NCBI GenBank assembly: GCA_964634875.1
Contig: CAZWKA010000007.1
Location: forward strand, 1,649-65,648
DNA from: an uncultured Gammaproteobacteria bacterium
Lineage (GTDB): Bacteria; Patescibacteriota; Patescibacteriia; Magasanikbacterales; GWA2-37-8
Length of the DNA stretch: 64,000 bases
Direction: 5' to 3'
Positions 327-61,829 of the stretch are shown one piece after another. Made by a program: the position numbers and the translations under genes. Position 1 is the first letter of the stretch. Each line of letters starts with the position of its first letter. Below the pieces are notes generated by a model. That model did no database searches. It worked only from the letters and a program-made list of their open reading frames with translations, and had not been told where the DNA came from.

Positions 327-337
327 ATTTTCTTCTG

Positions 338-410
338 AAAAAAGAAGAAGCCGGTGTGCGCTTATACTTCTGAAGTGCTTGCGCACGACAGTAGTATAGC
401 ACACACCGGC
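338..410 (-). terminator. Rho-independent terminator downstream of the FabH-like cassette, on the minus strand
   Basis: Nested GC-rich hairpin gccggtgtg...gcgcacaccggc, followed on the minus strand by ttcttctttttt. Confidence 0.5.
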
Positions 411-442
411 CAGGAGTGGACAGGGTGAAGAGAAGGTCGTGA

Positions 443-12618: not shown

Positions 12619-15600
12619 TTACTCTGCAGGAGCAGCAATGATAATTTTATTGGCAAAAGGAGTAAAGGCAAAATCATCTACCGCCGCACTACACTCTTTA
12701 ACACCGTTAGATCGAGGATCATTGTAGCACCCTGAAGCACGACCCGCACAATTTCCATTACACCACCCCCAATTATCAACCACCTGTACTTTTGGCACAA
12801 ATTCACAACAGCCATTTGGGAAGTTCGCAGGGCATTGGGCAGCCTCTTTAAAGCCGACACTATCGCGTGAACAGAAGTACACATGATCGAACAAGCGATA
12901 ATTAGCCACACAGGTTTTATCAATAATCCGACCAAAACTTTGGGCTGAGGCCTCTGGAGCACACACTGGCTCAATAACACAATCAGAATTTACTCTACAG
13001 ACAGTCTTAAGGTCGCGTGGAACTACACACTTACCAACCGGAGTCTGAGGATCATTTGGCAAGAGACAGGTTGCACCAGGTTTACCATTAGGCCCACCCG
13101 TGCAATCAGCATTTGTAGTACAAGAGATATCTTGAAGGTCTTTTACGACACAGTGTTTTTCGGCACCAACCGTTTCACATGTTGGCTGCTGATAGCCACG
13201 GTAGTTACGACCAGCTTGTTGGCCTGGCAAGGTGCTTTTACCGTCGCCCCAAAACACATTAACTTCACGGATAGGCATCTGATCGGCGTCCGCGGCAACG
13301 AAAAATTGCAGATCAACTTTGGCGCTTGGGGTGCGGCGGATAATATCTCTTCCTTGTGGTTCATTATCAATAGTCATGCCTGGCTTAGTCTGGTCTTCGA
13401 GACAGTGTCCTTCGGCATTACAAGCACCAACAGGGAACACAACTGGTGGACGAGGTTTTTTCTGCCAATCACCCGTAGCCGTTTTATCATTAAACGCACC
13501 TTTCGTGACCGCAAAAACGTTGCTGGAGTTGAATGTATACAAAGTATTAACCCGCGCAAATAACGAACCAAACGAATTGTTAGAATCAGCTGAGCTTGCC
13601 CCAACCTTTGTAGCATTTTTAACAGTCCCATCAGCCAACACCTGTAAACAACTTGATTTTGGGCCTCCAAGACATGCATATGGCGAACCAGGAACATACG
13701 TCGGCACTGCAGCATTACCTTTTACGATACTTAAAGGATACTTACAATTTTCTAGCCCAAACGATGGGAAACAGGTTGTCTCACTCTCTTTAGGCTCAAA
13801 CGGAGTCATGATAAGCGGCTGATTTTGATTCATGCTAGCTATTCCCAAACTACCAAAAGGTGCAATCGGGGTGGTGTACATATAGCCTAGACCGGCGAAA
13901 CCGAAATCACCATTGTAACTACTTGAAATACTATAGAGCGACTGCTTCCAAAGACGATTAGTCCAAGGGATCGATCGATCATCGGACGAACCTACTGTAT
14001 CGACTTCGGCTATACGAGTACAAATCTGTCGAAGCTTAAAACTCACTTTGTATTTGATAAAGTGGTCATCCCCGGCATCATACGAACCATGATAAAGGGT
14101 TCTGTAACCAAGGAAGGTTCCGTCATTATCAAACGTAAAGAGGATGGCATGCCAATTACCTTCGCCTGCGTGGGTGTCGGCAATAGTAGCGTTGGTGACA
14201 CTAGGGTTCCAAAACCCAAGTTCACCAAGATTTGTGCCTCGATTAGTTATGCCGCTTGGAACAAAAATGTTGCCATTCAACATTCCACAGTCACCCTTTG
14301 GCCCAGTATTTGCACATTCTGCAGAAAAGCTGCCATCATCCCCCATACAAATGTTTCCCTCTTGGCTTACAAACTCTCCATGTGTTCCATCGCGCTTCTT
14401 ACTACCGTACATGTAAATGAATTCGTTCGGCTTGCCCATGTAATGGCCAGTAAGTGCGCGTCCCGGGCCTTGCATATGATCTTTTGTCTGGTAAACAGTC
14501 TGAGGCTGGTCAAGGGGCGTAGCAGCATTTGGCCAAATCTCAAAAATGGCACCATTTGGATCTTCACTGTCCCGAATATCCTGGGTATGGATGATTATTT
14601 TCTCAATATCAGATTTACGCAATTTGCGCTCGTCTGCTGTTGCTTGATAAAAATCACGGTTGGTTGAGCCTACAAAGGTAGCAGCATTCCTAAATGGACT
14701 ATTCCAGTCACACGAGGTACCAGATTGGCCATACATATCCGACTGCTGGATTTTCTTGTTGTCATAAAATTCATAGGTACCAAACAACAAATCTTGGCCA
14801 TAAAAATACCTGCTCGCTGGATACGGCATGGCCGGATCCATTTTATCACCACCGGCATTGTTGGCGTCCAAGCAGTACTCACGACCAGACGCCAACCCCA
14901 AGTCAGCAGGAGATTGGTAACCGGCATCAGGATGCTGCTCGTTAATGTCGTTTGACCCGATAATACTGTCAACAGGGAACCAAGACAAGCAAGGGAAAAC
15001 ACCCTGCGCAGCGTTCACGTTGCGGGAGCTATCCGGTTCCAGACAAAAACCTTTCCAGCCTAAGAGCTGTTCGTTCCGACGTTGTTTTTGGCATGTTCCA
15101 GGCGTCTTGCCGGTCATCTGACAACCTTCATCATCGCTACAAGCTGAACCTTCTTTAAAACCACCCTGACAAATACCTTGGGGGACTTTTAAGTTACTTC
15201 CTGGTACCGCAGCAGCATCAAGCGTATTTGGTTTCTGGTAGTTCCAATACTTAGTGAGCGCACCATCACCGTAGGTAACCTTGGTATAGTTACAATCACA
15301 CGCCCCGGATACACTTGGGTCAGAGGTAAAACCATTGGTTTCACTACAGAACTTGGCATTACTAAACTGAGAAATTGCTTTTCCAATCACCGTCGTATTA
15401 GGGAACGGCGAATCCTTTTCAGGATACAAACGGCAGGCTTCAGCCGGAGACTTCTTAACCACCTCGCCAATCGTGCCATCAGGGTTTTGTAAACAGAGGC
15501 CATTCAAACAAATACCAATTCCGCCTTGACCACAAACCTTATCATTTTCTTTACACGATGCGTCGTTCGGTGCTGCGGCGTCTACACAATTCGTATTACC

Positions 15601-18600
15601 GCATGGTATTCTTCGCACCAAACGGAACAAGGGATTAGCGCTTTGGCCGCTAATATTTACCTGAGCCAGCTCTTCAACTGGGAAGATACCTGGGATAGAC
15701 CAGCCGGTAAAATCCATACCCGCCCAACTTGTATCACGCTGGGTATATAGTTCAGGAGTTAATACCTGGCCAGAATATTCCCCACCACCTTCAACCCAAC
15801 TGGCGCAATTGGTTATATTACTTTCGGCTTGGTTTTCTGGGGCACGATCACAGCGGCCGATATCATCACAGACTATTTTCCATTTACCGGTTTTATCATC
15901 CCAAACACGATGGCTAGAACGGCACTGGAGCCATTCGCCACAGGTACGATCGTGGTCAACTTTAATAATGATATTAGCATCCGCTGGATTAGCAGTAGAG
16001 CCGTCAACCGGTTTGACGAGGGCATCCTGAGACTCCTGGCTGGCAGCATACGTCGCCTTGCTTGACCAGTATTTATTTGGATTATCAGGTTCGTCAAACA
16101 ACGCACAGCCTTTCTTCTGACTCACCGTACCATTACATTCCGCTCCATCAATCTTTTCGTTTTTAATATAATAGTAAGAACGATCATTATCATTGTGATC
16201 AACAAATTGAGTACATTTATCTTGGGCAGCCGGACACTCACCAACAAAGTTTTGATATTTAGCGCCATCACCATACGACCAGAGGCCATAATTATTGCCC
16301 TGCTGGACGTAATCTGCATAACACGGCTGCGCTCCTACACCCTGGCAGGTCGCACCAGTGCCACAATCAGCATTGGCAGAACAGAATTTGCCGCTGTTGT
16401 TGCTACAGATACCAACCCCTTTCCAGAACCAGCCACTAGATTTTACACCCTTTACGTTTACATCAGCCTGGTATGTACAAATCTTCTGACCGGTAACCAG
16501 CGGATCTTTAAAATATGAATCACCCGTTGCACTGCCGAACGCCGAACAACCTACTGCTTCTTTCTGGCAAAGTGTTGTTTCATACGCGGCCGGATCGTTT
16601 TTAACCAAAGCCGTGGTGTATTGGAGACCCGTTGGGGTTGATTTCTGGACACCCGCAAATGTACAACCAAGATCAGCAACATTACAGGAAGCAGCCTGGT
16701 TAGCAACGAGATACACAGGCGTTGTCGCTGGAGTATCAGCTGGTACATAGACGGTTGATTTTACAAAACTGCCTGCTCCGGCAACCTGGATAATCTCACT
16801 GGCCTCATGGCCGCTGATATTGACATAACACCCTGACTGTCCGACAGGAATCTGACACGAAACCGTATCATTGCCAAGTTGGATTTCAACTTTTGTTCCG
16901 CCGGTGCCGACAAGCCAAACATTGAAGGCTTTAGGACCAGCGTCGGCAGGAGTATTTTGGGTATCAAACAAGGCCGTACAACCAATCGCACCTTCACGGC
17001 AAAGGTAGTTAAAACCTGTCAAAGCAAAAGTCTTATTGCTCGGGTCTTTATACTGCATACAACCCAAAGCCTCGCCAGGCAAATTGTCATTCACGTTACT
17101 GTCACAAACCGGATCCACTTTAAGACTGTTCTTAACAAGATAAATATAATCAGTAACCTCGACGAGGCGGATGTTATCGAGATATAATTTGGCGTTGCCC
17201 TGATTTTTGAAAACCAATTGGCCTAGTGTCCCGGCTCCACCATATTCGATCGGCCCCAAGCGATAATAATTCCAGGTATCCCCCACCCCAACTGCACCAA
17301 AATCTTTGGAGTAATTACCCTCGGTCGAAGCCAGGCTGACAGTTAAGGACTGAGCGTCACCCTTTGCCCAGAACGTAAGGTCGTAACTCTTACTCGGGAC
17401 CACATTAATGTCGCGCGTCAGAGCCGCTGCTCCAAGGTAGCCCAAAGAATGCTCGCCAACGCGGGTAGATTCGCTCGAAAGTTGCACGGCAGCTGGTTTC
17501 CACGGGGTCAAAACAGGAGCAGTCGTACCTTCAAAAGTGTCATTAAATACTTCCTTAATATTGTTACCGGCATTCCCTTTATAAGCACGACACGTGTTGG
17601 CCGACGCTTGGCAAGATTTACTGGTGCCCGCTGTATTTTGAACACCATCTGGCAAACCGTAGTAGAAACAAGAACCGTTCTGGTACTCACCACCCTGCAA
17701 ACAGAGTTGACATTGGTTATTGTTCCAAAAACCCTTCTTAGTAGCACACGTAGCCTGATCATATGATGTCGGCAAGAGCTCGCTGTTATTTAAACGGTAC
17801 GGTGTACACGAGTTAGAAACCGGGATGGTTTTGGCGAGTAAACGGTAGTAAACATTACCCTCATCATCGTTAAACTGTCGGCAGTCTGGGTCTGCTTTGC
17901 CGCTCTTATAGAGGGCCTCACTGCACTGGCGGGCATAATTATCGGCATCACTCTCTGTGCGATAAAAATACTTTGGTCCACCTGTCTCATCTTTAACCAA
18001 GGTAAAGACTTTTAATTGGTAACCACCGACCGTAGAACCCTCGTAGGTAATAAAGTTTTTCTGAACATTTACGTCTGGTGTGGCGCAAGGGCGGAGATAT
18101 GAATAATGTTCGACATTTTCTACCTCACCAAGTGTCGTGCTAAGGTTGGTAAAACTGCTGCAACTTTCTTCTTGGGCACTGCAGGAAGAACCAGAAGCAG
18201 GAATTATATATGCAACATCCTGGCCAAGCGAATAATTACTTGGCATTTCGCGATAACTGGCATAGCCGACACATTTTGCATCACATTGGTCATTCCAGAC
18301 AATTTGTTTATCGACCACCTCAGCTGCTTTAAACCGGCCAGGAATTTTGCTGCCGCCCTGGGCTGAAGTGTACCAATTGCAATTTACTTCATCCGCAATA
18401 CAAGCACCGGCATAATTACTACATTGTGCCTTTGGTGTAATCCTGGCGAGATCAGCTGTCGTGTTGGCCCAATCAATTTTTCGGGTACTTGGATCACTGT
18501 CATAACAACCTAAATAGTCCGGAGCTTTTTTGAGATACAGACTGTTCTGATTATTTGTTGCACCAGCGATCTTAAAGGCAGAGCAACCAGCTGAATTAGC

Positions 18601-20556
18601 GCTACAGGAGGTAGAGACTTTATTATTGAAGAAAGCACCGTTATTTACATATCCAACAGCACTATCAGGGCCAGCTGGATCCTGCCAGTTGCCTGCACTA
18701 TCTTGCGACAAGCTATACGTAGTACAGCCGACATTATCTTTTGTACAAACACTGGTGTCGAGGCTGCGGTAAACATAAGCCCGCTGCGCACCGCTGGCAT
18801 CTACGAATGAGCGGCAGGTACGGAATTGTGCATCACAGCTGTCCGCATTAAAGCGCCAGGTATTTTTCTCGCGCGCACAGTAACCGTAACTACTGCAACT
18901 ACCATCGCTATTATAAGCGACACAAGTTGACAGGTCAGCACAGTCTTCGAGACGGTCAGGAGCATCGGAACTGAGCAAGTTAGCGCTAAAACCGAGGGCG
19001 TTACAGCGGGCGGCAGGAGCCTTGATTACCCAATCTGGATCGATGAGGTGGCAGAAAGGTTTGGTAATAGGGTCATACGTAACACCGACGATCTTACCCT
19101 GCGGATCCTTAATATAATTACAATCATTAAAGCCTTTCACTACTTGGCCGAGCGTCCAAGGCTGGTCAGGATCGCTTTTAGCGGCTGCAAGCTCAAACCC
19201 AAGCGGAATGATTCGGGCTTGGCGAAGGACTTTCAGGTTTGAATAGCAATAGGCATTCAAATAACAATTCTTATCAGAATTATCTTCGGCACGGCTTGGC
19301 GGGATAAGCTTAAATTCACCATGCAGCCACCCCTTGTCAATTGCTTCCTGGATTGTCGTTGGATTACCGTTGCCAATTTCTTGTGCTGCCTGCACCAAAC
19401 CAGCGTCTGCGCGACAGTTGTAGAGGCCAGCCGCATCCGGACAGCTACTTAGCTGACCCAGGATGTCATATTCATTAACTGTATTAGTACGGACAGCTAA
19501 GAAACCACTGAAAAGCTGTTCAGCCTGACGGCGACCACTTGTAACGCCGCTATCGCTAAAGCTTGTGACCGCGCTGTTGATTGAGGCGCAACTTTCGCCA
19601 CCAACTCCACCAACACACAAACCAAATGGCAACACGCCTTTTTGTTGGAAATTTTTAAGTACTGTTCCAGCCAAAGTGCTGAGGAAGAAATTTGCCAGGG
19701 CACCTGGAAGATTTTTATAGTTGCCGGAATTAATAGCCGCGGTGATCTGGTCGCCACTCTTATCGACCTGGCGGGCATTTCCGGTAGCCTTAAACTCTTC
19801 TGCAATTAATGGGGCAGGAGTTTGGATATCACCAGAGATATTGGTTTTTTTATCAACAAAACCCTGGTTAGCGATACGTTCGGAATCTGCGGCACCAACT
19901 GCTCTCGCAGCTTGCTGGCTAATCTTAGAGGAAGCGGCAAGCTGTATACCAAGTCCAGTCTCATCGATCTGGAAGGCAGAATTAAACTGCTGCTCGATGG
20001 AACCGCCTACCGAACTGAACTTGCTTCTCCAGGCCTCTGCACTCCAATTTTTTTGAAAATCCGAAAAAGTACATGCTGGCTTGCGGGTAGGATCCCCCGT
20101 TCCACCACTCGGCAAATTAACACGGATACCGACCTTCATTGCTAAATCAAGCTGTGGATCAGGAATGCTACACAAGTTAAAACCAGCTCCTTTACTTAAT
20201 TCTTCGATACCATGCCCAAGCGCATCATTACCAACATTTTTGAGGTAATCACCAAAACTTTTGGTCTGAGCAAATGGATTTTGGCCCTTGCCTCCAGAGG
20301 CAAGCCAGACAGCCGAATCATAAGCAACTTTACGCAAGACATACGACACAACCGTACCAGCCGCCGCTTGGACAGCTACTTTAAGGCCTTCCAAAATTTC
20401 ATCTTTGACTTTAAAAGTCGTAGCCACCACGTCTGTTGTTACTACAACAGGGATAGTCGCTTTGGCCGTCCCAGGGAAACCAAATGACCCAACCACACTG
20501 ACAAAAGCAACCACCGCAAGAATACCGGCTAAACCTATTTTTTTAAATATAGACAT
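12619..20556 (-). CDS. Giant (2645 aa) secreted or cell-surface cysteine-rich protein, N-terminally anchored
   Basis: Single uninterrupted ORF. N-terminal signal/anchor MSIFKKIGLAGILAVVAFVSVVGSFGFPGTAKA. Over 150 Cys, Gly/Asn/Ser/Thr-rich, no cytoplasmic-type motifs. Co-oriented directly upstream of the T4SS-like genes. Confidence 0.7.
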   Translation of the reverse strand: MSIFKKIGLAGILAVVAFVSVVGSFGFPGTAKATIPVVVTTDVVATTFKVKDEILEGLKVAVQAAAGTVVSYVLRKVAYDSAVWLASGGKGQNPFAQTKSFGDYLKNVGNDALGHGIEELSKGAGFNLCSIPDPQLDLAMKVGIRVNLPSGGTGDPTRKPACTFSDFQKNWSAEAWRSKFSSVGGSIEQQFNSAFQIDETGLGIQLAASSKISQQAARAVGAADSERIANQGFVDKKTNISGDIQTPAPLIAEEFKATGNARQVDKSGDQITAAINSGNYKNLPGALANFFLSTLAGTVLKNFQQKGVLPFGLCVGGVGGESCASINSAVTSFSDSGVTSGRRQAEQLFSGFLAVRTNTVNEYDILGQLSSCPDAAGLYNCRADAGLVQAAQEIGNGNPTTIQEAIDKGWLHGEFKLIPPSRAEDNSDKNCYLNAYCYSNLKVLRQARIIPLGFELAAAKSDPDQPWTLGQVVKGFNDCNYIKDPQGKIVGVTYDPITKPFCHLIDPDWVIKAPAARCNALGFSANLLSSDAPDRLEDCADLSTCVAYNSDGSCSSYGYCAREKNTWRFNADSCDAQFRTCRSFVDASGAQRAYVYRSLDTSVCTKDNVGCTTYSLSQDSAGNWQDPAGPDSAVGYVNNGAFFNNKVSTSCSANSAGCSAFKIAGATNNQNSLYLKKAPDYLGCYDSDPSTRKIDWANTTADLARITPKAQCSNYAGACIADEVNCNWYTSAQGGSKIPGRFKAAEVVDKQIVWNDQCDAKCVGYASYREMPSNYSLGQDVAYIIPASGSSCSAQEESCSSFTNLSTTLGEVENVEHYSYLRPCATPDVNVQKNFITYEGSTVGGYQLKVFTLVKDETGGPKYFYRTESDADNYARQCSEALYKSGKADPDCRQFNDDEGNVYYRLLAKTIPVSNSCTPYRLNNSELLPTSYDQATCATKKGFWNNNQCQLCLQGGEYQNGSCFYYGLPDGVQNTAGTSKSCQASANTCRAYKGNAGNNIKEVFNDTFEGTTAPVLTPWKPAAVQLSSESTRVGEHSLGYLGAAALTRDINVVPSKSYDLTFWAKGDAQSLTVSLASTEGNYSKDFGAVGVGDTWNYYRLGPIEYGGAGTLGQLVFKNQGNAKLYLDNIRLVEVTDYIYLVKNSLKVDPVCDSNVNDNLPGEALGCMQYKDPSNKTFALTGFNYLCREGAIGCTALFDTQNTPADAGPKAFNVWLVGTGGTKVEIQLGNDTVSCQIPVGQSGCYVNISGHEASEIIQVAGAGSFVKSTVYVPADTPATTPVYLVANQAASCNVADLGCTFAGVQKSTPTGLQYTTALVKNDPAAYETTLCQKEAVGCSAFGSATGDSYFKDPLVTGQKICTYQADVNVKGVKSSGWFWKGVGICSNNSGKFCSANADCGTGATCQGVGAQPCYADYVQQGNNYGLWSYGDGAKYQNFVGECPAAQDKCTQFVDHNDNDRSYYYIKNEKIDGAECNGTVSQKKGCALFDEPDNPNKYWSSKATYAASQESQDALVKPVDGSTANPADANIIIKVDHDRTCGEWLQCRSSHRVWDDKTGKWKIVCDDIGRCDRAPENQAESNITNCASWVEGGGEYSGQVLTPELYTQRDTSWAGMDFTGWSIPGIFPVEELAQVNISGQSANPLFRLVRRIPCGNTNCVDAAAPNDASCKENDKVCGQGGIGICLNGLCLQNPDGTIGEVVKKSPAEACRLYPEKDSPFPNTTVIGKAISQFSNAKFCSETNGFTSDPSVSGACDCNYTKVTYGDGALTKYWNYQKPNTLDAAAVPGSNLKVPQGICQGGFKEGSACSDDEGCQMTGKTPGTCQKQRRNEQLLGWKGFCLEPDSSRNVNAAQGVFPCLSWFPVDSIIGSNDINEQHPDAGYQSPADLGLASGREYCLDANNAGGDKMDPAMPYPASRYFYGQDLLFGTYEFYDNKKIQQSDMYGQSGTSCDWNSPFRNAATFVGSTNRDFYQATADERKLRKSDIEKIIIHTQDIRDSEDPNGAIFEIWPNAATPLDQPQTVYQTKDHMQGPGRALTGHYMGKPNEFIYMYGSKKRDGTHGEFVSQEGNICMGDDGSFSAECANTGPKGDCGMLNGNIFVPSGITNRGTNLGELGFWNPSVTNATIADTHAGEGNWHAILFTFDNDGTFLGYRTLYHGSYDAGDDHFIKYKVSFKLRQICTRIAEVDTVGSSDDRSIPWTNRLWKQSLYSISSSYNGDFGFAGLGYMYTTPIAPFGSLGIASMNQNQPLIMTPFEPKESETTCFPSFGLENCKYPLSIVKGNAAVPTYVPGSPYACLGGPKSSCLQVLADGTVKNATKVGASSADSNNSFGSLFARVNTLYTFNSSNVFAVTKGAFNDKTATGDWQKKPRPPVVFPVGACNAEGHCLEDQTKPGMTIDNEPQGRDIIRRTPSAKVDLQFFVAADADQMPIREVNVFWGDGKSTLPGQQAGRNYRGYQQPTCETVGAEKHCVVKDLQDISCTTNADCTGGPNGKPGATCLLPNDPQTPVGKCVVPRDLKTVCRVNSDCVIEPVCAPEASAQSFGRIIDKTCVANYRLFDHVYFCSRDSVGFKEAAQCPANFPNGCCEFVPKVQVVDNWGWCNGNCAGRASGCYNDPRSNGVKECSAAVDDFAFTPFANKIIIAAPAE

Positions 20557-40251: not shown

Positions 40252-40890
40252 CTACGATCGGACGAAGAACTCATACACGATTAGAGCCACTTGAAAAATA
40301 ATCAATGCCTCAATAACCCATGCTGCAAAACGTATTTTGCGGCGCTGACTATTGTATAGAGCGACATCAGCGGGATCGATAGGCACAACGCTATACCCGG
40401 CAGCACGAAGCGCACCCGTCAATGTTTGAACATCACCGTATGAAAGTTGATACAACCAGGGGGCCTGATCACTGCACTCAATCTTGATCGCCCAGGTAGC
40501 TTGGAATTTGACGAGCGCGAACAGGTTAAGCGAAGGACTCGGCACAAAAGAAATTCTCGTAACCGACGATTTAGCCACAGTGTTGAGCAGTTTTGCGCCG
40601 TGCGATCTAACCTCCAACCCGGCCTCCCCGACACGCAAGTATTCCCGTTTGCCCAGAGCGCTCCAAAACCATATAGCAATAATAACCGTAAAAAGTTTGG
40701 CCGCGACCACGAGCGCCTCAACGTTAAATTCGTAAGGGTACTGCTCAAGATTCTTAACAACAAAAAAAGTACCCACCGCAACAGTGACAACAGTCATGAA
40801 AATAGCCAACCAAAAAACTCGCCGCAAATTAAAGCCCGGATTTTGGAGTATATATGTGTACGAGTTTTCAGGCATACATTTAGACAACAA
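40252..40890 (-). CDS. Hypothetical polytopic membrane protein
   Basis: Three to four TM helices. Overlaps the leuS end by 11 nt. Confidence 0.4.
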   Translation of the reverse strand: MLSKCMPENSYTYILQNPGFNLRRVFWLAIFMTVVTVAVGTFFVVKNLEQYPYEFNVEALVVAAKLFTVIIAIWFWSALGKREYLRVGEAGLEVRSHGAKLLNTVAKSSVTRISFVPSPSLNLFALVKFQATWAIKIECSDQAPWLYQLSYGDVQTLTGALRAAGYSVVPIDPADVALYNSQRRKIRFAAWVIEALIIFQVALIVYEFFVRS

Positions 40891-43800
40891 TACTTACCAA
40901 TTTGCCTTTGACATAAATGACCTTCTTTGGTTCTTGACCCTTCAGCCAAGCAACAATTTTTTCACTTGCTAGCGCCAGTTTTTTAACTGTTTCATCGTCA
41001 AGGTTCTTAGCGACCGTCAGCTGGTCGCGGACTTTACCATTGACCTGAATAACGAGCGCAAAGCTGTCATCGACTAACCATTTTGCATCGGCAATGGGCC
41101 ACGGCGCGAGCGCCACGCTACCGTCGTTACCGAGGGCACTTGACCACAACTCTTCGGCTACATGCGGCGCAAACGGCGCAAGTACTTTGATCAGCATTTC
41201 ATACACTGACTTGCCAATATGCGTAAAACCACTCATTTCATTAATGAACTCCATCATCTTGGCAACTGACGTGTTAAATTTCATTTCATCAATATCGCTC
41301 GACACTTTAGCAACGAGGCGGTGCGCTAACTTATATTGCTCCTCAGAAATCCCTGATTCATCAGCGGTAACTTTTTCTTGCAAGTTCCACACTTTTTCAA
41401 GAAAACGATAGACACCAACAACACCATTCGTATTCCAAGCTACTGCCTGGTCGAACGGACCCATAAACATAATATAGCTGCGTAAGGCGTCGGCACCAAA
41501 CTGAGCCACAATATCGTCGGGATTCACCACGTTCCCACGACTCTTACTCATTTTTTCACCATCTTCCGCAAGAATGATGCCGTGGGAAGTGCGCTTTTTA
41601 TACGGTTCGAGTGTTGGGACTAATCCCTGGTCATACAAAAATTGATTCCAGAAACGGGAATAGAGCAGGTGCAGCACCGTGTGCTCATTACCACCGTTAT
41701 ACCAATCAACGGGCGCCCAGTACTGTAGTTTTTCTGGTGCAGCAAAGGCAGTGTCGTTGTGCGGATCCATATAGCGCAGCCAGTACCAACTTGACCCAGC
41801 CCAATTCGGCATCGTGTCGGTTTCACGGCGGGCTGTGCCAGGAACAAAAACATTGTGGATGTCGGTGTAGTTTTTAAGGATTTGGTTTTCGGGCAATACT
41901 TCTTTAAGCTTTTCAAAACCATGATACCCCCAGGCACAACCAATAATATTCCTTCGGTCTAAGAATTCTTCAAGCTCATAGACGTCTGCTTTGGTATCTG
42001 TAAAATAAAAAGCATCTTGTTCGCTTATTTCCCAAGCCTTACAAATTGAAGCAATTTTTTCTTCTTTGGAATGGTGGTCTTCAAAAGTAAGCACATGCGT
42101 AGCATCAAGACCTGACACTGCAATTTTATTTTCAATGTATAATTTTGACCCACTTGAAACAATCGCAATTTTGGTGTTTTTAATCTTTTTAATTTCCGCA
42201 ATAAACTCAGCGAACAAATCAAAGCCCTCAGCATTCATCTGCGCTCCATACTCAGCTGTAAACCGCTGGTTCCACGCAACCATTTCATCCGTCATAGTAT
42301 GACCTTTAGCATGATACGGTTTTTTATCAAAATATTCTTCCATCTGCGCGAGGGCATCATCACGATCTTTAGCATAACCTGAAGTAACCCGTGCCCGGAG
42401 TGACGCCTCAAAAGTATCGCCAACGACACCGTCAAAATCAAAAATTAAATACTTAGGGGTGTCGGCTGACAACTTGGTACAGCGCGGACAATCGGTTTTT
42501 ACCCAATCATCAATTTTTGACAGCGGTGACTCGCCCGTGTCAGTCGGTTCATATTTTTCTACCTGGGGCAACGTGAGCGGCAGCTGGTCTTCCGGAACTG
42601 GCACATACCCACACTTATCACAAATGACAATGGGAATTGGTTCACCCCAGTAGCGCTGGCGTGAAAAAACCCAGTCACGGAGTTTGTAGTTGGTTTTGGC
42701 GACACCAAATTTCTCAGTAATTTTTTGCTTGGCTTCCGCCGAAGTAAGACCGCTAAACTCAGCGGAATGTATGAGCACACCGTCTTCGGTAAGCGCAAAG
42801 CCGCCAGCAGTAAACCAACGCCATTCAAATGGTCCGTCAACCACATTCACAAAGCCGCCTACTTCATCCTGCGGTATCCAAACCGGGTCATGCTTAGCAC
42901 TTTCGGCGAGCGCAATAGTATCTTTAGCTTCGTCATCAAGCTCAAAATGCAACGGATGAATTTCAGCATACCGATTTTCATCTTTGTGTGCCGCATGGTA
43001 TTGAGTGTGAAACTCAACGCCCAGCGACCGGACAAAACGAATATTCCTATATCCTGTTTCTTCCATAATTTCCCGCTTCGCCGCCTCAACCACATCTTCA
43101 CCATCTTCGACACCACCAATTATAAAGGTATGCGGTAAACGACTGCCCCAGACTGCGCCTTTCCATGAGAGCATCAAAATTGCACCATCACTTTTACGGC
43201 TGACAATAGCGTGCACCGTACGCCGACGGACTGTTTTTTTATCCGGCCGTGGCGGGTTTACTGGCTCGATGAATTGCGGCGCAATTACCTGTCGCACAGA
43301 AAGATTATATTTTTTAGCGAACTCAAAATCACGCTCATCGTGAGCGGGCACGCCCATGACTGCACCAGTACCAACCGTACTCAAAACATAGTTAGTAATC
43401 CATACCGGAACAGTTTCGCCGGTGGCCGGATTCACTGCGGTGACACCGGTTTCGATACCAGTTTTTTCGGGTTCTTCACGGGTATTCATAACCGCACGGG
43501 CGGCGATACATTCGGCAATATATTTTTTGACCTCGACTGTTGTTTCCCACCCGACTTCGAGCCATTTTTTGGCAACTTCGGGGGCAATAGCAATATAGGT
43601 GACGCCGAAAAGAGTATCCGGACGCGTCGTGAAGACTTCTATTTCTTCAAATCCAGGGAATTGCTTCGTCGTTTCACTCCTCGCAATGACAAATTTGATG
43701 AGTGCACCTTCACTTTTGCCAATCCAATTTTGTTGCTGTGCTTTGGCTTCGGGAATATACTTTACTTCTTCAAGTCCTTGAAGCAACTGCTCAGCATACT

Positions 43801-44389
43801 TGGTAATCGCCAGCATCCACTGTTCTTTGTTCCTTGCCTCAACCGGCGTGCCGCAACGTTCACAGCAACCACCAACCACTTCTTCGTTGGCGAGCCCAAT
43901 TTTGTCTTTTGGACACCAGTTAATCGGCTGATTTTTTTTGTACGCAAGTCCGGCTTTAAAAAATTGTAAGAATAACCACTGGGTCCATTTGTAATACTTG
44001 GGATCAGTGGTATCAATCACGCGAGACCAGTCAAAACCAAAACCAAGACTCTTAAGTTGCCGAGTAAATGTAGCGATATTTTCTTTAGTTACTTCGGCAG
44101 GTGGACGGCCAGTTTTGATAGCATAATTTTCGGTCGGCAAACCAAAGGCGTCAAAACCAATTGGATATAAAACGTTACATCCTTCCATCCGTTTCTTACG
44201 CGACACCACATCCATGGCGGTGAAAGGGCGCGGGTGACCGACGTGGAGGCCGGCGCCAGACGGGTACGGAAATTCAATGAGCGCATAGAATTTTTGTCTA
44301 GTGACATCGTCGCTAGCAGCAAAGGTTTTATTTTTGTCCCAATATTTTTGCCATTTCTTTTCAATTTCCTCCGGATTGTATTTTTTCAT
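40880..44389 (-). CDS. leuS: Leucine--tRNA ligase carrying embedded Nudix-hydrolase and HAD-hydrolase modules (1169 aa)
   Basis: HIGH motif (HVGHP), editing domain (TTRPDT, PAHDERD), KMSKS, and C-terminal anticodon-binding region. An inserted Nudix box GGVEDGEDVVEAAKREIMEETG lies between the editing domain and the YRLRDW...RYWGEPIP segment. An inserted HAD motif I LIFDFDGVV lies between CPRCTKLSADT and ARRETDT. Confidence 0.9.
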   Translation of the reverse strand: MKKYNPEEIEKKWQKYWDKNKTFAASDDVTRQKFYALIEFPYPSGAGLHVGHPRPFTAMDVVSRKKRMEGCNVLYPIGFDAFGLPTENYAIKTGRPPAEVTKENIATFTRQLKSLGFGFDWSRVIDTTDPKYYKWTQWLFLQFFKAGLAYKKNQPINWCPKDKIGLANEEVVGGCCERCGTPVEARNKEQWMLAITKYAEQLLQGLEEVKYIPEAKAQQQNWIGKSEGALIKFVIARSETTKQFPGFEEIEVFTTRPDTLFGVTYIAIAPEVAKKWLEVGWETTVEVKKYIAECIAARAVMNTREEPEKTGIETGVTAVNPATGETVPVWITNYVLSTVGTGAVMGVPAHDERDFEFAKKYNLSVRQVIAPQFIEPVNPPRPDKKTVRRRTVHAIVSRKSDGAILMLSWKGAVWGSRLPHTFIIGGVEDGEDVVEAAKREIMEETGYRNIRFVRSLGVEFHTQYHAAHKDENRYAEIHPLHFELDDEAKDTIALAESAKHDPVWIPQDEVGGFVNVVDGPFEWRWFTAGGFALTEDGVLIHSAEFSGLTSAEAKQKITEKFGVAKTNYKLRDWVFSRQRYWGEPIPIVICDKCGYVPVPEDQLPLTLPQVEKYEPTDTGESPLSKIDDWVKTDCPRCTKLSADTPKYLIFDFDGVVGDTFEASLRARVTSGYAKDRDDALAQMEEYFDKKPYHAKGHTMTDEMVAWNQRFTAEYGAQMNAEGFDLFAEFIAEIKKIKNTKIAIVSSGSKLYIENKIAVSGLDATHVLTFEDHHSKEEKIASICKAWEISEQDAFYFTDTKADVYELEEFLDRRNIIGCAWGYHGFEKLKEVLPENQILKNYTDIHNVFVPGTARRETDTMPNWAGSSWYWLRYMDPHNDTAFAAPEKLQYWAPVDWYNGGNEHTVLHLLYSRFWNQFLYDQGLVPTLEPYKKRTSHGIILAEDGEKMSKSRGNVVNPDDIVAQFGADALRSYIMFMGPFDQAVAWNTNGVVGVYRFLEKVWNLQEKVTADESGISEEQYKLAHRLVAKVSSDIDEMKFNTSVAKMMEFINEMSGFTHIGKSVYEMLIKVLAPFAPHVAEELWSSALGNDGSVALAPWPIADAKWLVDDSFALVIQVNGKVRDQLTVAKNLDDETVKKLALASEKIVAWLKGQEPKKVIYVKGKLVSIVV
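43656..43690. repeat. MITE arm (gggaattgcttcgtcgtttcactcctcgcaatgac) encoded in-frame inside leuS
   Basis: Translates as FVIARSETTKQFPG within the editing-domain entry region. Confidence 0.5.
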
Positions 44390-44474: not shown

Positions 44475-45338
44475 TTATTTCTGACAATTTCGGCAAAAAT
44501 GCGTCCCTCGCCCCGCTACCTTAGTTTTTTCGATAGTGCCGGTTTTACACGTTTTACACCGCGCATTCTTGGAACCGTACACTTTTAGGTGCGCGGAAAA
44601 ATTGCCTTTGTTGCCTTCACTATCGATGTAATTATTAAACGTTGTGCCGCGATACTTAACCGCCTTTTTAATGATTGCATTTGAGGCAATGTGGAGCTTT
44701 TTAATCTCAGCCGGCGTCAGCGTAGCTGTCCGCCTGGTTGGCAGCACACCAGCCGCGTGACAAATTTCATCGGCATAGATATTCCCTATTCCCGCAATCA
44801 GCGCCTGGTTGAGCAGCAGCGCCTTGATGTTCGTTTTTTTATTTTTGAGCAGCGCCAAAAATTTCGCAAACGTAAAATCTTTTGTAAGCGGTTCAATGCC
44901 AAAACCATCCAAAACTTTTATCGACTGCTCCTCAGTAACTAATTTTAAATACCCAAACTTGCGCAGATCATTAAAAAATAGCTGTGACGCATCGCCAAAC
45001 GTAAAAATAGCACCCGTAAACTTATCCGGCAGTTGTGTGTTTAGCGTTTTAAAACTGTGACCGCCGCCGACAATAGTATTTTTGAAAACATACACGAGCT
45101 GCCCGGTCATTTTGAGATGCACCAGAAGAACATCCGTCGCTTTTTCAAAACGAAAAATCATCAACTTCCCCCGCCGGTCAATCTCACTGATTTTTTTACC
45201 AACTAAAAAAGCTGCCACCTCTTGGGGTTTTCCGGCAGCTACTTTAGGATACAGCGCCTTAAACTCAGTAATTTTTTTACCGATAATTTTGCGGCGTAAA
45301 TCTTGGCGGATCGTTTCAACTTCGGGTAATTCGGGCAT
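44475..45338 (-). CDS. mutM: Formamidopyrimidine-DNA glycosylase (Fpg/MutM)
   Basis: N-terminal MPELPEVE and C-terminal zinc finger CxxC...CxxC. Confidence 0.9.
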   Translation of the reverse strand: MPELPEVETIRQDLRRKIIGKKITEFKALYPKVAAGKPQEVAAFLVGKKISEIDRRGKLMIFRFEKATDVLLVHLKMTGQLVYVFKNTIVGGGHSFKTLNTQLPDKFTGAIFTFGDASQLFFNDLRKFGYLKLVTEEQSIKVLDGFGIEPLTKDFTFAKFLALLKNKKTNIKALLLNQALIAGIGNIYADEICHAAGVLPTRRTATLTPAEIKKLHIASNAIIKKAVKYRGTTFNNYIDSEGNKGNFSAHLKVYGSKNARCKTCKTGTIEKTKVAGRGTHFCRNCQK

Positions 45339-59795: not shown

Positions 59796-61829
59796 ATGAA
59801 CCCAACACCGCTTGCCCCCCTCGCACCACTTGACCTGGGGAAACCATCGACCACACCACAGCTGCCTTTGCGCCGCCGTACTCCGAACACACCCTTTAGG
59901 GCTGCGCCTGTTTCGGCTCGTCAGCCAGCCGCACCCCTCGCTCGAGCGCCAATTGCTGCAGCTCCACTACAGCGCTTTCCCGCGCCTACAGAAAGCAAAT
60001 TAAAAACCACCACACCACATCTCGCTCACAAACCACTTCCGCACTCAGCGCACCAAACCGCCCGGCCACGCCGCGACAAAGGAACGGGCTTTACCCCATA
60101 CCAGGCCTACCCAGGAAAACCAACGGGCACCGCACCATTCAAGCCAGCCCCTACTCAGGCCGGTGGCGGCACGCTTCGGATTATTCCAATCGGCGGCTGT
60201 GAAGAAGTTGGACGCAACATGACCATCTACGAATATGGCGATGATATTATTATCCTCGACATGGGCGTGCAATTCCCGGAAGAAGACATGCCGGGTATTG
60301 ATTATGTCATCCCCAACACCAAATATTTAGTCGGCAAAGAAAAAAATATCCGTGGGGTTATTTTTAGCCACGGCCACCTCGATCATATTGGCGCCGCACC
60401 AATCCTGCTTGAAAAACTAGGCAACCCACCGATCATTGGCATGCCACTCACCCTTGCGATGATCAAACATCGCCAGGAAGATTACAAAAAAGATACCGGT
60501 GCCAAACTCCGTACGATCCCGGTCAAAACCATTAACGATGTCATCCAGCTCGGAGCTTTTAAAGTGAAATTTTTCCAGGTAGAGCATTCGATCATGGATT
60601 CGATGGGTACCATCCTCGAAACCCCGGCCGGAAGCGTCATGCATGCCGGAGACTGGACCATGGAGCGCCAAGAAGACGGCTCAACACATATCCACTACGA
60701 ACAGCTTCAAAACGTAAAAAAACCAAGCGTCCTCATGCTTGAGAGTCTTGGTTCTATTCGCGAAGGCCGCCACGCTACACACGAAGAACTCTACAGTAAC
60801 CTGACTGAAATTTTGGAAAACGCCCCAGGCCGGGTTATCTTGGCTACGTTTTCTTCCATGGTGGAACGCGTTAAATGGGTTCTGGAAGCTGCCCAAAAAC
60901 TGGGTAAATTTGTCGCCCTCGCTGGGTACAGCATGAAAATGAACATTGAGATCGCGCGCGAACTTGGCTATATCAAAGTAGGCAAGGGCGTCCAGATCGA
61001 CATGCGCGATATTGGTAAATACCCGGATAATAAAGTCGTACTAGTCTGTACAGGCGCACAAGGAGAAGAAAATGCTGCCCTCAACCGTATTGCCAGCGGC
61101 GAACATAAGGATATCCGTTTCCAAAAAAATGACACTGTAATCTTCTCGTCTTCCGTTATCCCGGGCAACGAGCGCACGGTTCAACGCCTCAAAGACAATA
61201 TCTACCGCCAGGTCGATAACGTCATTCATGGCGACCTGATGGACGTGCACGTCTCTGGACACGGCACTCGCCGCGATATCGTTGACATGTTAAACCAAGT
61301 CAAGCCTGATTTTTATATCCCGGTCTACGCCAACCACTTCTTTCTCAAAGAAGCCCGGAACCTGGCTGTCAAAAATGGCTACCCTGCTAACCGGATCTTT
61401 GTACCCGATAACGGTACGGTTATGGAATTATCCGGCGGCAAAATTACGGTCTTACCTAAAAAAGTACCGAGCGAATATGTGTTCGTGGACGGCCTCGGCG
61501 TTTCTGACTCGCAACATGTCGTACTGCGCGACCGCCAGGTCCTGGCTGAAGATGGCATGGTTGTGATCATCGCGACGGTTGATACCAAGAGCGGCAAGCT
61601 GATCCAGAATCCCGACATTATCTCTCGCGGGTTTGTCTTCCTCAAAGATCACAAAGAGTTAATCGAGGACTTACGCCACCGCGTCAAAAAGATGGTCGTT
61701 GAATCTGACCCGCTATCCTGGGCTGACACCAACAACATCCGCAACAAGATCCGCGACTATGTCGGTCAATTCCTCTTCACGAAAACCGAGAAGCGCCCGA
61801 TGATCTTACCAGTGGTGATTGAGGTATAG
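59796..61829 (+). CDS. rnj: Ribonuclease J with a roughly 125-aa Pro/Ala-rich N-terminal extension
   Basis: MBL motif HGHLDHIGA, the beta-CASP region and the C-terminal domain. The low-complexity N-terminus (PLAPLAPLDLGKPSTTPQLPLRRRTP...) is GC-richer than the rest. Confidence 0.85.
   Translation: MNPTPLAPLAPLDLGKPSTTPQLPLRRRTPNTPFRAAPVSARQPAAPLARAPIAAAPLQRFPAPTESKLKTTTPHLAHKPLPHSAHQTARPRRDKGTGFTPYQAYPGKPTGTAPFKPAPTQAGGGTLRIIPIGGCEEVGRNMTIYEYGDDIIILDMGVQFPEEDMPGIDYVIPNTKYLVGKEKNIRGVIFSHGHLDHIGAAPILLEKLGNPPIIGMPLTLAMIKHRQEDYKKDTGAKLRTIPVKTINDVIQLGAFKVKFFQVEHSIMDSMGTILETPAGSVMHAGDWTMERQEDGSTHIHYEQLQNVKKPSVLMLESLGSIREGRHATHEELYSNLTEILENAPGRVILATFSSMVERVKWVLEAAQKLGKFVALAGYSMKMNIEIARELGYIKVGKGVQIDMRDIGKYPDNKVVLVCTGAQGEENAALNRIASGEHKDIRFQKNDTVIFSSSVIPGNERTVQRLKDNIYRQVDNVIHGDLMDVHVSGHGTRRDIVDMLNQVKPDFYIPVYANHFFLKEARNLAVKNGYPANRIFVPDNGTVMELSGGKITVLPKKVPSEYVFVDGLGVSDSQHVVLRDRQVLAEDGMVVIIATVDTKSGKLIQNPDIISRGFVFLKDHKELIEDLRHRVKKMVVESDPLSWADTNNIRNKIRDYVGQFLFTKTEKRPMILPVVIEV

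Follow-up and report, generated by a model that had tools for sequence, protein, structure and literature searches.

A Patescibacteria Leucyl-tRNA Synthetase With Nested Nudix and HAD Hydrolase Modules

The 64-kb window analyzed here (the whole stretch of DNA, 64,000 nucleotides) contains a leucyl-tRNA synthetase (LeuRS) gene with two hydrolase modules nested in its reading frame, which raises the question whether these modules are intact enzymes, where else they occur, and what they might do inside a synthetase. The reading developed below, to which we assign a probability of roughly one half, is that they are tethered autonomous hydrolases that would clear nucleotide by-products of amino-acid activation.

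The Synthetase Core

The gene is a single unbroken open reading frame (Table 1) and, judged by its profile and pairwise matches, a genuine bacterial-type LeuRS: the TIGR00396 model leuS_bact scores 943.9 bits (cutoff 548), and the LeuRS of E. coli and T. thermophilus both match with E ~1e-189. The inserts are in frame, and HIGH (here HVGH) and KMSKS are intact, as a first-pass annotation of the sequence had stated; the editing motifs are intact as well, and the zinc knuckle cysteines are C592, C595, C634 and C637. The excess length noted by that annotation amounts to about 340–370 aa over insert-free LeuS relatives of 802–828 aa. The Pfam editing-domain model tRNA-synt_1_2 matches aa 220–372 at model positions 1–143 of 185; in silico excision of both inserts leaves a 798-aa core in which the editing-domain model is matched unsplit, from 1 to 183 of 185. 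Since only "AEDGE" is found at the site of the leucine-specific domain directly before KMSKS, where E. coli has ~46 residues, this domain is absent. The LeuRS core is otherwise intact, and the protein is predicted to function as the leucyl-tRNA synthetase, an essential translation enzyme, of a tiny-genome Patescibacteria (CPR) bacterium, with both modules inserted into surface loops.

Table 1. Features of the LeuRS gene and its nested modules (positions in the window).
Feature	Position (nt)	Residues (aa)	Strand	Evidence
Complete LeuRS ORF, 1169 aa + stop, with two nested hydrolase modules	40880..44389		(-)	ORF; TIGR00396; E. coli and T. thermophilus LeuRS
Rossmann fold first half, ZN-1-like Cys cluster, CP1 N-terminal three quarters (TTRPDT; GTGAVMGVPAHDERD)	43274..44389	1-372	(-)	Pfam tRNA-synt_1_2
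HVGH	44234-44245	49-52	(-)
Nested Nudix hydrolase module	42797..43273	373-531	(-)	PF00293; box invariance; free-standing alignment; pLDDT 94.8; dN/dS
Nudix box GGVEDGEDVVEAAKREIMEETGY	43049-43117	425-447	(-)
Final ~40 editing-domain residues, conserved YKLRDWVFSRQRYWGEPIP segment, CxxC...CxxC zinc knuckle	42476..42796	532-638	(-)
Nested HAD-IA phosphatase module with linker KLSADTP	41840..42475	639-850	(-)	PF13419; motif conservation; boundaries vs P0002; pLDDT 95.2
HAD motif I D651/D653	42425-42439		(-)
Rossmann fold second half, KMSKS, anticodon-binding domain, C-terminal domain	40883..41839	851-1169	(-)
KMSKS	41540-41554	946-950	(-)

Integrity and Position of the Modules

Over its full length, each module matches a free-standing protein of other Patescibacteria; it keeps all its catalytic motifs and is predicted to form an independent canonical fold; both nested hydrolases are apparently catalytically active. 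The Pfam NUDIX profile PF00293 matches aa 388–510 (E 9e-13, 48.8 bits; cutoff 21.1) and the HAD_2 profile PF13419 aa 648–803 (E 2.8e-6, 28 bits; cutoff 23.8), which bears out the initial recognition of complete Nudix and HAD modules; the positions initially proposed for them have to be revised.

The Nudix module had been placed C-terminal to the editing domain; instead it splits the CP1 editing domain at Pfam model position 143 of 185, at E. coli LeuRS residues ~361–374 (chain numbering minus a 20-residue tag), a site occupied by a ~30-aa variable loop in the insert-free relative P0109. It aligns with the free-standing proteins P0241, P0244 and P0246 and is equivalent to the entire free protein of ~160 aa. 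The strict Nudix box is present in 88 of 88 Nudix-bearing proteins (among 120 homologs) and in 97 aligned modules, its catalytic Glu and Arg residues all being invariant, and the predicted structure (pLDDT 94.8) has the Nudix fold. Comparison with the 86%-identical gene of the close relative P0002 indicates purifying selection on the nested modules, the figure being that of the Nudix module (dN/dS 0.066, vs. 0.05–0.06 for the LeuRS core). Its best structural matches include ApnA hydrolases, and its profile matches include the Ap4A hydrolases of lupin and Aquifex. An aromatic residue follows the box at +17 in 81 and at +18 in 95 of the 97 modules; an aromatic 17–18 aa past the Nudix box is the ApnA-hydrolase rule (PMC2425470). 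The family also has conserved motifs of its own, HKxENR and W504.

The HAD module had been assigned to the site of the leucine-specific domain; it is flanked instead by CPRCT upstream and GTARRETD downstream (E. coli ~477/483), directly past the second CxxC of the zinc knuckle and 96 residues before KMSKS, with exact boundaries given by the alignment with P0002, in which the HAD is absent. The HAD proper begins with KYLIFDFDG, at the equivalent of Met1 in its free-standing homologs, and the module matches free-standing ~205-aa proteins over their full length. Motifs I (LIFDFDGVVGDT, aa 648–659), II (S745), III (K775/K778) and IV (D798/D802) do not vary among 42 nested and 31 free-standing members, which share the family signatures EDHHSKEEK and GCAWGY; the predicted structure (pLDDT 95.2) is a HAD-IA fold with a C1 cap. 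The pyrophosphatase BT2127 is among the top Foldseek matches, and the pyrophosphatase PpaX is the best specific NCBIfam match of the family (13 of 32 members, best E 2.9e-9), with the qualification that all NCBIfam matches of the Nudix and HAD modules fall far below the curated cut-offs. The HAD segment has a GC content of 0.395 (GC3 0.349), the remaining gene 0.46–0.50. At the zinc-knuckle site the HAD is sporadic, a recent gain or loss in this lineage; the insertion of the Nudix module is ancient and widely distributed.

Hosts and Gene Neighborhoods

The synthetase is not the one-off oddity it was first taken for; LeuRS with nested hydrolases is one case of a phylum-wide Patescibacteria habit. 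Related genomes share the insertions: the identical Nudix-plus-HAD LeuS architecture occurs in at least 10 independent assemblies (NCBI, JGI, ENA, Logan) at 49–60% identity, and is therefore not an assembly artefact. Among aminoacyl-tRNA synthetases (aaRS), the HAD family is hosted by LeuS (in about five different loops), ValS, other class I aaRS, AlaRS, Asp/Lys/AsnRS and a Thr/Ala-SAD protein; its non-aaRS hosts are EngA, PNPase and CTP synthase, and it is also fused to Nudix or Ham1, both PPi-releasing enzymes. The Nudix family is, by its sequence relatives, almost exclusive to aaRS: 78 of its 80 closest metagenomic relatives reside in LeuS, one in ProRS and one is free, although the 78 may largely represent one ancient, vertically inherited insertion and not 78 separate events; independent aaRS-linked Nudix events number about four. 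Further domains nested in CPR LeuRS are a Ser_hydrolase alpha/beta fold and an endonuclease-like DUF559, and the 1722-aa LeuS P0005 carries a nested set of up to three Nudix modules, a HAD and an alpha/beta hydrolase.

Free-standing copies adjoin leuS or hisS, often immediately upstream of leuS, as the HAD does in loci L004, L036, L037 and L038, and as the Nudix protein P0241 does next to an insert-free 807-aa LeuS; HisRS and HAD genes overlap by 4 nt in one locus, and Nudix and HAD genes overlap in another. The HAD-leuS adjacency loci share synteny (DUF5671...HAD-LeuS-sigma70) and may reflect a single ancestral arrangement. In the sampled loci, a nested HAD never co-occurs with an adjacent free HAD, and vice versa. 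Since the modules are fused in some genomes and adjacent in others, they carry a classical signature of functional linkage. Patescibacteria would nest "clean-up" enzymes in synthetases and other essential nucleotide-using proteins, a seemingly undescribed and widespread practice; our search found no literature on hydrolases nested in such synthetases.

Possible Function and Alternative Explanations

As autonomous hydrolases merely tethered to LeuRS, the modules would depend on co-expression and co-localization and not on fixed geometry. The Nudix module would most likely cleave ApnA or related NTP-type substrates arising from the aminoacyl-adenylate, and the capped HAD-IA module would most likely act downstream on a small phospho-compound, either PPi (PpaX/BT2127-like) or the released NMP; these substrate assignments rest on weak signals. 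PPi removal would pull activation forward but favor Ap4A formation, and the Ap4A so formed would be cleared by the Nudix module, resulting in a "self-cleaning" synthetase. Of the initially suggested ApnA hydrolysis in cis, the hydrolysis is compatible with the structural matches and the conserved aromatic, whereas a geometry-dependent cis mechanism is disfavored because the HAD occupies about five LeuRS loops as well as unrelated hosts. The companion suggestion, hydrolysis of mis-activated adenylates in cis, finds no support because aminoacyl-AMP is an acyl-phosphate and not a pyrophosphate-linked Nudix substrate. Nor can one aaRS-specific chemistry explain every HAD fusion, because EngA, PNPase and CTP synthase make no PPi or ApnA.

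It is possible, if rather unlikely, that the modules are hitch-hiking housekeeping hydrolases without a functional link to LeuRS, products of genome economy in gene-poor, promoter-poor CPR genomes where small genes end up within or beside essential genes that are constitutively expressed; LeuRS would simply offer, by its size, a number of loops that tolerate insertions. The single HAD family at about five LeuRS loops and in non-aaRS hosts, the unrelated Ser_hydrolase and DUF559 inserts, the changing insert positions that argue against geometric coupling, and the ability of P0002 to manage without the HAD would all agree with this explanation; yet the hosts are strongly skewed toward aaRS (roughly 10 of 14 independent host/site combinations), large essential proteins such as RpoB/C, gyrase, SecA, EF-G and IF2 do not appear as hosts among the top 150 representatives, the sole non-LeuS host found for the Nudix family, ProRS, is also an aaRS, free-standing copies adjoin synthetase genes, and no further insert of this kind was found in the other proteins of the 64-kb window.

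A sensory or regulatory role, in which one or both modules would bind a nucleotide or alarmone (e.g., Ap4A, (p)ppGpp-like, ADP-ribose), tune aminoacylation or editing allosterically, and so couple translation to nucleotide status as the first-pass annotation also suggested, is improbable; the Nudix module sits within the mobile CP1 editing domain and could affect its movement, but the invariant Nudix-box Glu/Arg and both HAD nucleophile/acid Asp residues are typical of enzymes and not of sensors, the same modules occur as free-standing proteins, and the HAD position within LeuRS varies. Degenerate, non-functional structural spacers are very unlikely: class Ia aaRS including LeuRS accept many lineage-specific insertions, and P0109 has its variable loop at the Nudix site, but motif conservation effectively refutes this possibility, and selection on par with the core, confidently predicted canonical folds and Pfam scores above gathering thresholds also contradict it. 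The low GC content of the HAD and its absence from the closest relative might suggest an intein, some other mobile element, or a chimera produced during sequencing or assembly, but this explanation has a negligible chance of being correct, as Pfam detects no Hint, LAGLIDADG or HNH/endonuclease domain in LeuRS, the HAD junctions (…CPRCT/KLSADTPKY… and …NVFVP/GTARRE…) lack intein splice residues (Cys/Ser/Thr, His-Asn) and repeats and are both in frame with flanks 77–81% identical in nucleotides to the P0002 gene, and the architecture recurs in independent assemblies.

Comparison With Known Systems

The catalytic core, ZN-1 region and CP1 are collinear throughout with canonical bacterial LeuRS (E. 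coli 4AQ7/3ZGZ; T. thermophilus 1H3N), and the CP1 T-rich and Asp motifs, HIGH, KMSKS, anticodon-binding and C-terminal domains are shared; unlike these enzymes, the present LeuRS contains nested enzymes of 159 and 212 aa, and unlike E. coli LeuRS it is without a leucine-specific domain and keeps the CxxC...CxxC knuckle. Catalytic domains inserted in a class I Rossmann fold are also represented by CP1 of class Ia aaRS and by NF040702 (isoleucine--tRNA ligase, N-acetyltransferase domain-containing), a curated exception model in the NCBIfam search of LeuRS, which returned no curated model for LeuRS with nested Nudix or HAD. In contrast to both, the inserts described here are stand-alone families that also exist as separate genes, and the Nudix module is nested in the already-inserted CP1, giving three nesting levels; the set of inserts is combinatorial.

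The Nudix module has the single-domain fold, complete box and conserved +17/+18 aromatic in common with Ndx1, Rv2985/MutT1, NUDT2, the Aquifex and lupin Ap4A hydrolases and RppH, which are among its best structural and profile matches at only 15–26% identity and with curated family scores far under cut-off; unlike Ndx1, MutT1, NUDT2 and RppH, it is embedded in an aaRS, has its own motifs, and has a predicted activity. The HAD module shares the DxDGV nucleophile, Ser, Lys and DxxxD motifs, the Rossmannoid core and a ~80-aa helical C1 cap with HAD-IA phosphatases such as B. subtilis PpaX and BT2127; its identity to solved structures is at most 19%, a profile search finds only 3mc1 (E 5e-4), and unlike PpaX and BT2127 its family is essentially limited to Patescibacteria and often nested inside other proteins. 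Finally, aaRS are the known cellular source of Ap4A, a LysRS-Ap4A-NUDT2 axis is known, and functionally linked enzymes form Rosetta-stone fusions such as NitFhit and GluProRS; the nested hydrolases resemble these fusions in being joined in some genomes and encoded by neighboring genes in others, and differ from NitFhit and GluProRS in being nested internally, not joined end to end, and in having a putative link to Ap4A.

The leucyl-tRNA synthetase and the placement of its two inserts

The leuS reading frame of the window is single and uninterrupted, and its product is a predicted bacterial-type leucyl-tRNA synthetase (LeuRS) with all core motifs present; it scored 943.9 bits against the NCBIfam model TIGR00396 (curated cut-off 548.4), the organism belongs to the Patescibacteria, and the nearest named homologues of the protein are found in Magasanikbacteria. 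The LeuRS proteins of E. coli and T. thermophilus aligned with it at E ~1e-189 in three to four collinear blocks. Both class I signatures, HVGH and KMSKS, are present, the CP1 editing domain was recovered by Pfam (PF13603, 191.9 bits), and TTRPDT and GTGAVMGVPAHDERD, representing the T-rich region and the conserved Asp, align with the editing-site motifs of E. coli. The leucine-specific domain, a variable and not family-defining element of the E. coli and T. thermophilus enzymes, is absent: in the alignment just AEDGE lies between HGIIL and KMSKS, in place of ~46 residues in E. coli. The gist of the first-pass annotation, a LeuRS carrying a Nudix and a HAD domain, agrees with Pfam, TIGR00396 and the motif positions, and every string that it quoted was found in this protein where expected. 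The mechanically called reading frame downstream of leuS probably has its true start farther downstream.

Coordinates of the features discussed; nucleotide positions refer to the window and residues to its LeuRS unless another locus or protein is named
Feature	Nucleotides (strand)	Residues (aa)	Remarks
TraG/VirB4-like P-loop ATPase	3319-5199		adjoins the 936-aa and 2645-aa ORFs
936-aa ORF	8532-11342 (-)		no Pfam match at E<=1e-4
2645-aa ORF	12619-20556 (-)		no Pfam match at E<=1e-4
ORF downstream of leuS	40252-40890 (-)		212 aa; TTG start; small-membrane-protein-like; 11-nt overlap with leuS 3' end
leuS	40880-44389 (-)		1169 aa
HVGH signature		49-52
Nudix module		373-531
Pfam NUDIX domain (PF00293)		388-510	48.8 bits, cut-off 21.1
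HAD module	41840-42475 (-)	639-850
Pfam HAD_2 domain (PF13419)		648-803	28 bits, cut-off 23.8
KMSKS signature		946-950
HAD site S1		~240
HAD site S2		between 372 and 532	holds the Nudix module in the window
HAD site S3		~595	inside the zinc-knuckle hairpin
HAD site S4		between 638 and 851	holds the HAD module in the window
HAD site S5		~1015	anticodon-binding region, Saccharibacteria LeuRS
Fpg/MutM (8-oxoguanine DNA glycosylase) gene	44475-45338 (-)		85 nt upstream of leuS, same strand
RNase J homologue	59796-61829 (+)		677 aa; metallo-beta-lactamase domain from aa ~139
ProRS of locus L063	1168-3093 (+)		LeuRS-type Nudix between anticodon-binding and C-terminal domains
DUF559 (PF04480)/MTES_1575 domain of LeuRS P0114		266-367	near editing-domain start

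In the alignment with E. coli LeuRS, residues 2-370 of the window protein correspond to residues 23-381 of the structure chain, and residues 532-633 to 394-497; the chain carries a 20-residue tag, after subtraction of which KMSKS falls at native positions 619-623, as expected. Because these tag-corrected blocks flank it, the 12-residue loop at native ~361-374 is the segment in whose place the Nudix module stands. The Pfam editing-domain model is broken by this module at position 143 of 185, and becomes contiguous (1-183 of 185) once both inserts are deleted in silico; the insertion loop is thus placed by alignment within the CP1 editing domain, and not past its end as the first-pass annotation had it. 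The HAD module falls between residues 633 and 853, equivalent to E. coli ~477/483. Its limits are set exactly by comparison with homologue P0002 (954 aa, 86% identical), which has the Nudix module and lacks the HAD: the junction reads ...CPACA-GPAKRETD... in P0002 and ...CPRCT-[KLSADTP-KYLIFDFDG...NVFVP]-GTARRETD... in the window. The insertion point lies directly past the second CxxC of a CxxC...CxxC knuckle, 96 residues ahead of KMSKS; the leucine-specific-domain site, to which the HAD had previously been assigned, is ruled out by the alignments with E. coli LeuRS and P0002.

Artefact, intein and origin of the HAD insert

An assembly chimera, raised earlier as an artefact at the insert junctions, is ruled out because independent assemblies share the architecture: Nudix combined with HAD at S4 was also found in P0004, P0009, P0013, P0026, P0027, P0032, P0042, P0080, P0252 and other LeuRS homologues, at 49-60% identity and drawn from NCBI, JGI, ENA and Logan. 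Inteins are marked by a Hint domain, an N-terminal Cys or Ser, and a C-terminal His-Asn followed by Cys, Ser or Thr. The intein check proposed in the first-pass annotation was run, and the intein or mobile-element explanation was rejected: Pfam returned no Hint or endonuclease domain, and the junctions lack splice residues, with the inserts beginning at F373 and K639 and followed by A532 and G851, and the HAD ending in ...FVP, not HN. Both HAD junctions are in frame, no repeats or microhomology were seen at them, and the flanks are 77-81% identical in nucleotide sequence to the HAD-less P0002 gene.

The HAD segment is lower in GC (0.395, GC3 0.349) than the rest of the gene (0.46-0.50, GC3 0.42-0.50). 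The LeuRS core is closest to those of the HAD-less P0002 (87%), P0003 and P0010 (73%), whereas for the HAD the nearest relative is the module of P0004 (60%), a protein whose core is just 62-71% identical. Together, the low GC3 and these discordant nearest relatives suggest that the HAD was gained laterally at an already existing insertion site. Alternatively, the HAD-less relatives may have lost it repeatedly and precisely.

Integrity and candidate substrates of the Nudix module

The Nudix insert aligned over its full length with free-standing proteins of 159-163 aa, among them P0241 (51% identity). The Nudix box GX5EX7REUXEEXGU fits exactly in the window (G425...G446-Y447) and recurs in strict form in each of the 88 proteins with a Nudix module in the set of the 120 top-scoring LeuRS homologues; G425, E440, E443, E444 and G446, including the catalytic Glu, are invariant in all 97 aligned Nudix modules. 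Relative to the P0002 gene, dN/dS was 0.066 for the Nudix module and 0.05-0.06 for the LeuRS core, with dS near saturation. The isolated module was modelled by AlphaFold (pLDDT 94.8) as a predicted single-domain alpha/beta/alpha Nudix fold.

In profile searches with this module, the lupin and Aquifex Ap4A hydrolases ranked fourth and fifth, behind the decapping Nudix enzyme AvrM14. A Tyr or Phe ~17 residues downstream of the Nudix box, which stacks on adenine, is common to Nudix Ap4A hydrolases (PMC2425470); the aligned modules have an aromatic residue at +17 (81/97) or +18 (95/97), and the window has Y464 at +17; such a residue is a weak and non-exclusive marker of ApnA hydrolases. Since MutT, NudI, RppH and ADPRase types score almost equally with the Ap4A hydrolases, ApnA hydrolysis is a lead, not an assignment. 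A MutT-like role within the GO system is conceivable, given the Fpg/MutM gene next door. The order Trx-Fpg-LeuS recurs in relative L034, but other clades did not show this synteny.

Integrity and candidate substrates of the HAD module

The HAD insert aligned end to end (42-57% identity, 97-98% coverage) with free-standing proteins of ~205 aa from Kaiserbacteria, Nomurabacteria, Paceibacterota and others, in which the start MKYLIFDFDG is the counterpart of PKYLIFDFDG in the window. Motifs I (D651-x-D653-G-V), II (S745), III (K775/K778) and IV (D798...D802) are invariant across the family, as are EDHHSKEEK and GCAWGY, two signatures of this family. In the AlphaFold model of the isolated module (pLDDT 95.2), strands 1 and 2 are separated by helices (module residues 15-89) in the C1 cap position, and the top Foldseek matches are all capped HAD-IA phosphatases; the modelled structure is an HAD-IA fold, in which a helical C1 cap is added to a Rossmannoid core. 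As a single sequence, the module retrieved from the PDB only a spurious histone-acetyltransferase match (E 0.02), and with the HAD profile 3mc1 was the only match.

Among HAD phosphatases, a C1 cap points to a small-molecule substrate, which is therefore predicted here. PpaX (NF009804) was the specific NCBIfam model matched by the most family members (13/32, best E 2.9e-9, below cut-off), and the HAD module of the window did not match it at E<=0.01; structures of the HAD-type pyrophosphatase BT2127 took Foldseek ranks 8-35, at 13-14% identity. With all NCBIfam scores far under cut-offs, neither the HAD nor the Nudix module is assignable to a characterised family.

Architectures and host range of the modules

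Read from the best matches among Patescibacteria homologues, LeuRS architectures comprise Nudix-only (~945-1000 aa), HAD-only (~1010-1045 aa) and combined Nudix and HAD forms (~1165-1180 aa), forms that include an alpha/beta-fold domain of the Ser_hydrolase type (~1130-1230 aa), and giants with up to three Nudix domains, an alpha/beta hydrolase and a HAD (P0005, 1722 aa). The Ser_hydrolase domain (PF06821, ~240 aa) occupies S3 in many LeuRS of Patescibacteria (CPR), including P0018, P0036, P0007 and P0029; P0030 is called "alpha/beta fold hydrolase" in NCBI. The endonuclease-like DUF559 domain in P0114, itself Nudix-bearing, may be what is left of a mobile endonuclease and may point to the way in which in-frame insertions originate.

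Members of the HAD family occur at no fewer than five LeuRS sites (S1-S5), and the nearest HAD neighbour shares the site in 25/26 cases at S2, 21/23 at S4 and 4/5 at S5; this grouping by site argues for approximately five independent insertions, each then inherited. Placement at so many positions would also imply that tethering, and not exact geometry, underlies the action of the HAD.

Searched against 1.84 billion representative proteins, the HAD-family profile retrieved 107 clusters at E<=1e-30, of which roughly half are free-standing. The non-LeuRS hosts are EngA/Der GTPase (at least 9 clusters), ValS, other class I aminoacyl-tRNA synthetases (aaRS; one with Ham1 too), AlaRS, class II Asp/Lys/AsnRS with an HD domain, a Thr/Ala-SAD protein, PNPase and CTP synthase; further fusions are Ham1-Nudix-HAD, HAD-Nudix and Ser_hydrolase-HAD proteins. 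In EngA/Der, the ribosome-assembly GTPases of Patescibacteria, up to two HAD domains, some of them from the window HAD's own family, are nested between or within the GTPase domains (P0248, P0250, P0283, P0307, P0309, P0315, P0353, P0291, P0314, P0335).

The host range of the LeuRS Nudix family is much narrower. A LeuRS-Nudix HMM scored 125-204 bits on every LeuRS copy, and the Nudix domains found in ValS or in HAD-Nudix fusions reached just 18-32 bits. In a metagenome scan with the C-terminal half of the module, which does not include the box, 78 of the best 80 loci lay in LeuS reading frames, one in a ProRS (L063, the only non-LeuRS host among them) and one was free; a HAD was found in none of the 80. 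These counts suggest that Nudix-in-LeuRS is the common and older state, and the added HAD sporadic. Overall, the Nudix and HAD modules are part of a strongly aaRS-biased, phylum-wide combinatorial system. Within the window, no similar inserts were found in other large proteins (TraG-like ATPase, the 936-aa and 2645-aa ORFs, RNase J, RNase Y, GroEL, SBP). The region of the two ORFs may be one of the giant loci, linked to the cell surface or to secretion, that are typical of CPR; the RNase J homologue is extended by ~130 aa at its N-terminus.

Gene neighbourhoods of free-standing copies

Neighbourhoods were examined as individual locus look-ups; a contig scan with the HAD alignment was swamped by the generic IFDFDGV motif, with 24 relatives among 600 matches. 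Free HAD genes were found directly upstream of a Nudix-bearing leuS on the same strand (L004), 12 nt behind a Nudix-like gene and 65 nt ahead of an 802-aa LeuS that has no insert (L036), upstream of leuS in L037 and L038, overlapping the end of hisS by 4 nt, and overlapping a Nudix gene with glyS near; the free Nudix P0241 lies upstream of an insert-free 807-aa LeuS. In the loci examined, nested and adjacent free HAD are mutually exclusive in both directions, which fits a single functional copy placed next to leuS or within it. The leuS-adjacent loci have a common synteny (DUF5671...X-LeuS-sigma70-DUF8128), and may therefore reflect a single ancestral arrangement, not independent events. Assembly GCA_040384245.1 contains two such syntenic loci of differing architecture (L007 and L037), one with a free Nudix and an 807-aa insert-free LeuS, the other with a free HAD and a 952-aa Nudix-bearing LeuS; two Patescibacteria were probably binned together in it.

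Interpretation

The combined evidence indicates an intact LeuRS with two autonomous hydrolase domains, each maintained by selection and each interchangeable with a separate gene. In the most economical model, the HAD would be a tethered hydrolase of PPi or of a small phosphate ester, and the Nudix an ApnA/NTP-type pyrophosphohydrolase clearing by-products of adenylate chemistry. PPi is released by aaRS, NTP-type Nudix enzymes and Ham1 alike, and as the HAD substrate it would unify most, not all, HAD partners, the exceptions being EngA, PNPase and CTP synthase. Removal of PPi in vitro drives aaRS activation and promotes Ap4A synthesis; a HAD pyrophosphatase would pull leucine activation forward, and a LeuRS-dedicated Nudix would destroy ApnA or other adenylate-derived by-products favoured by PPi removal. 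In a broader reading, with a probability of about one in four, Patescibacteria systematically nest complete housecleaning hydrolases in loops of aaRS and a few other essential nucleotide enzymes, and the window LeuRS is a self-cleaning synthetase; the proposed set of nested enzymes comprises Nudix, HAD, Ham1, Ser-hydrolase and HD, and LeuRS would be their principal hub.

The chief competing explanation is neutral hitch-hiking: housekeeping genes would have entered an essential gene that tolerates insertions, with no functional consequence. The several HAD sites in LeuRS and hosts such as EngA, PNPase and CTP synthase speak for this view; the skew of hosts towards aaRS and the free copies beside leuS or hisS speak against it. 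A sensor role, degenerate spacers or an artefact are unlikely next to invariant catalytic motifs and recurrence in independent assemblies.

If the self-cleaning reading is true, a new layer of by-product or alarmone control is built into an aaRS, and the modules could stand in for missing ppa, apaH and rppH in minimal genomes. Fusion, neighbourhood and host range offer a testable link between aminoacylation and ApnA/PPi hydrolysis in organisms of minimal metabolism. At the level of architecture, a bacterial aaRS can bear whole extra enzymes at several permissive loops, even in its editing domain, with its own motifs kept; such loops have practical value for LeuRS engineering, and the pattern recurs across the phylum in LeuRS of 950-1722 aa with Nudix, HAD and alpha/beta-hydrolase modules. 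Some of these proteins carry the public names "alpha/beta fold hydrolase", "HAD superfamily hydrolase" or "hypothetical protein", and the essential marker leuS can therefore look absent in CPR genome reconstructions.

No account of an aaRS with a nested Nudix or HAD domain, or of the recurrent LeuRS architecture, came up in full-text literature searches, and a review of the Nudix clan nowhere mentions tRNA synthetases (PMC5389931). The NCBIfam matches included no curated model for LeuRS with such inserts; while nothing comparable appeared for LeuRS, NCBIfam does hold an exception model for another synthetase with an added enzyme domain, IleRS with a GNAT domain.
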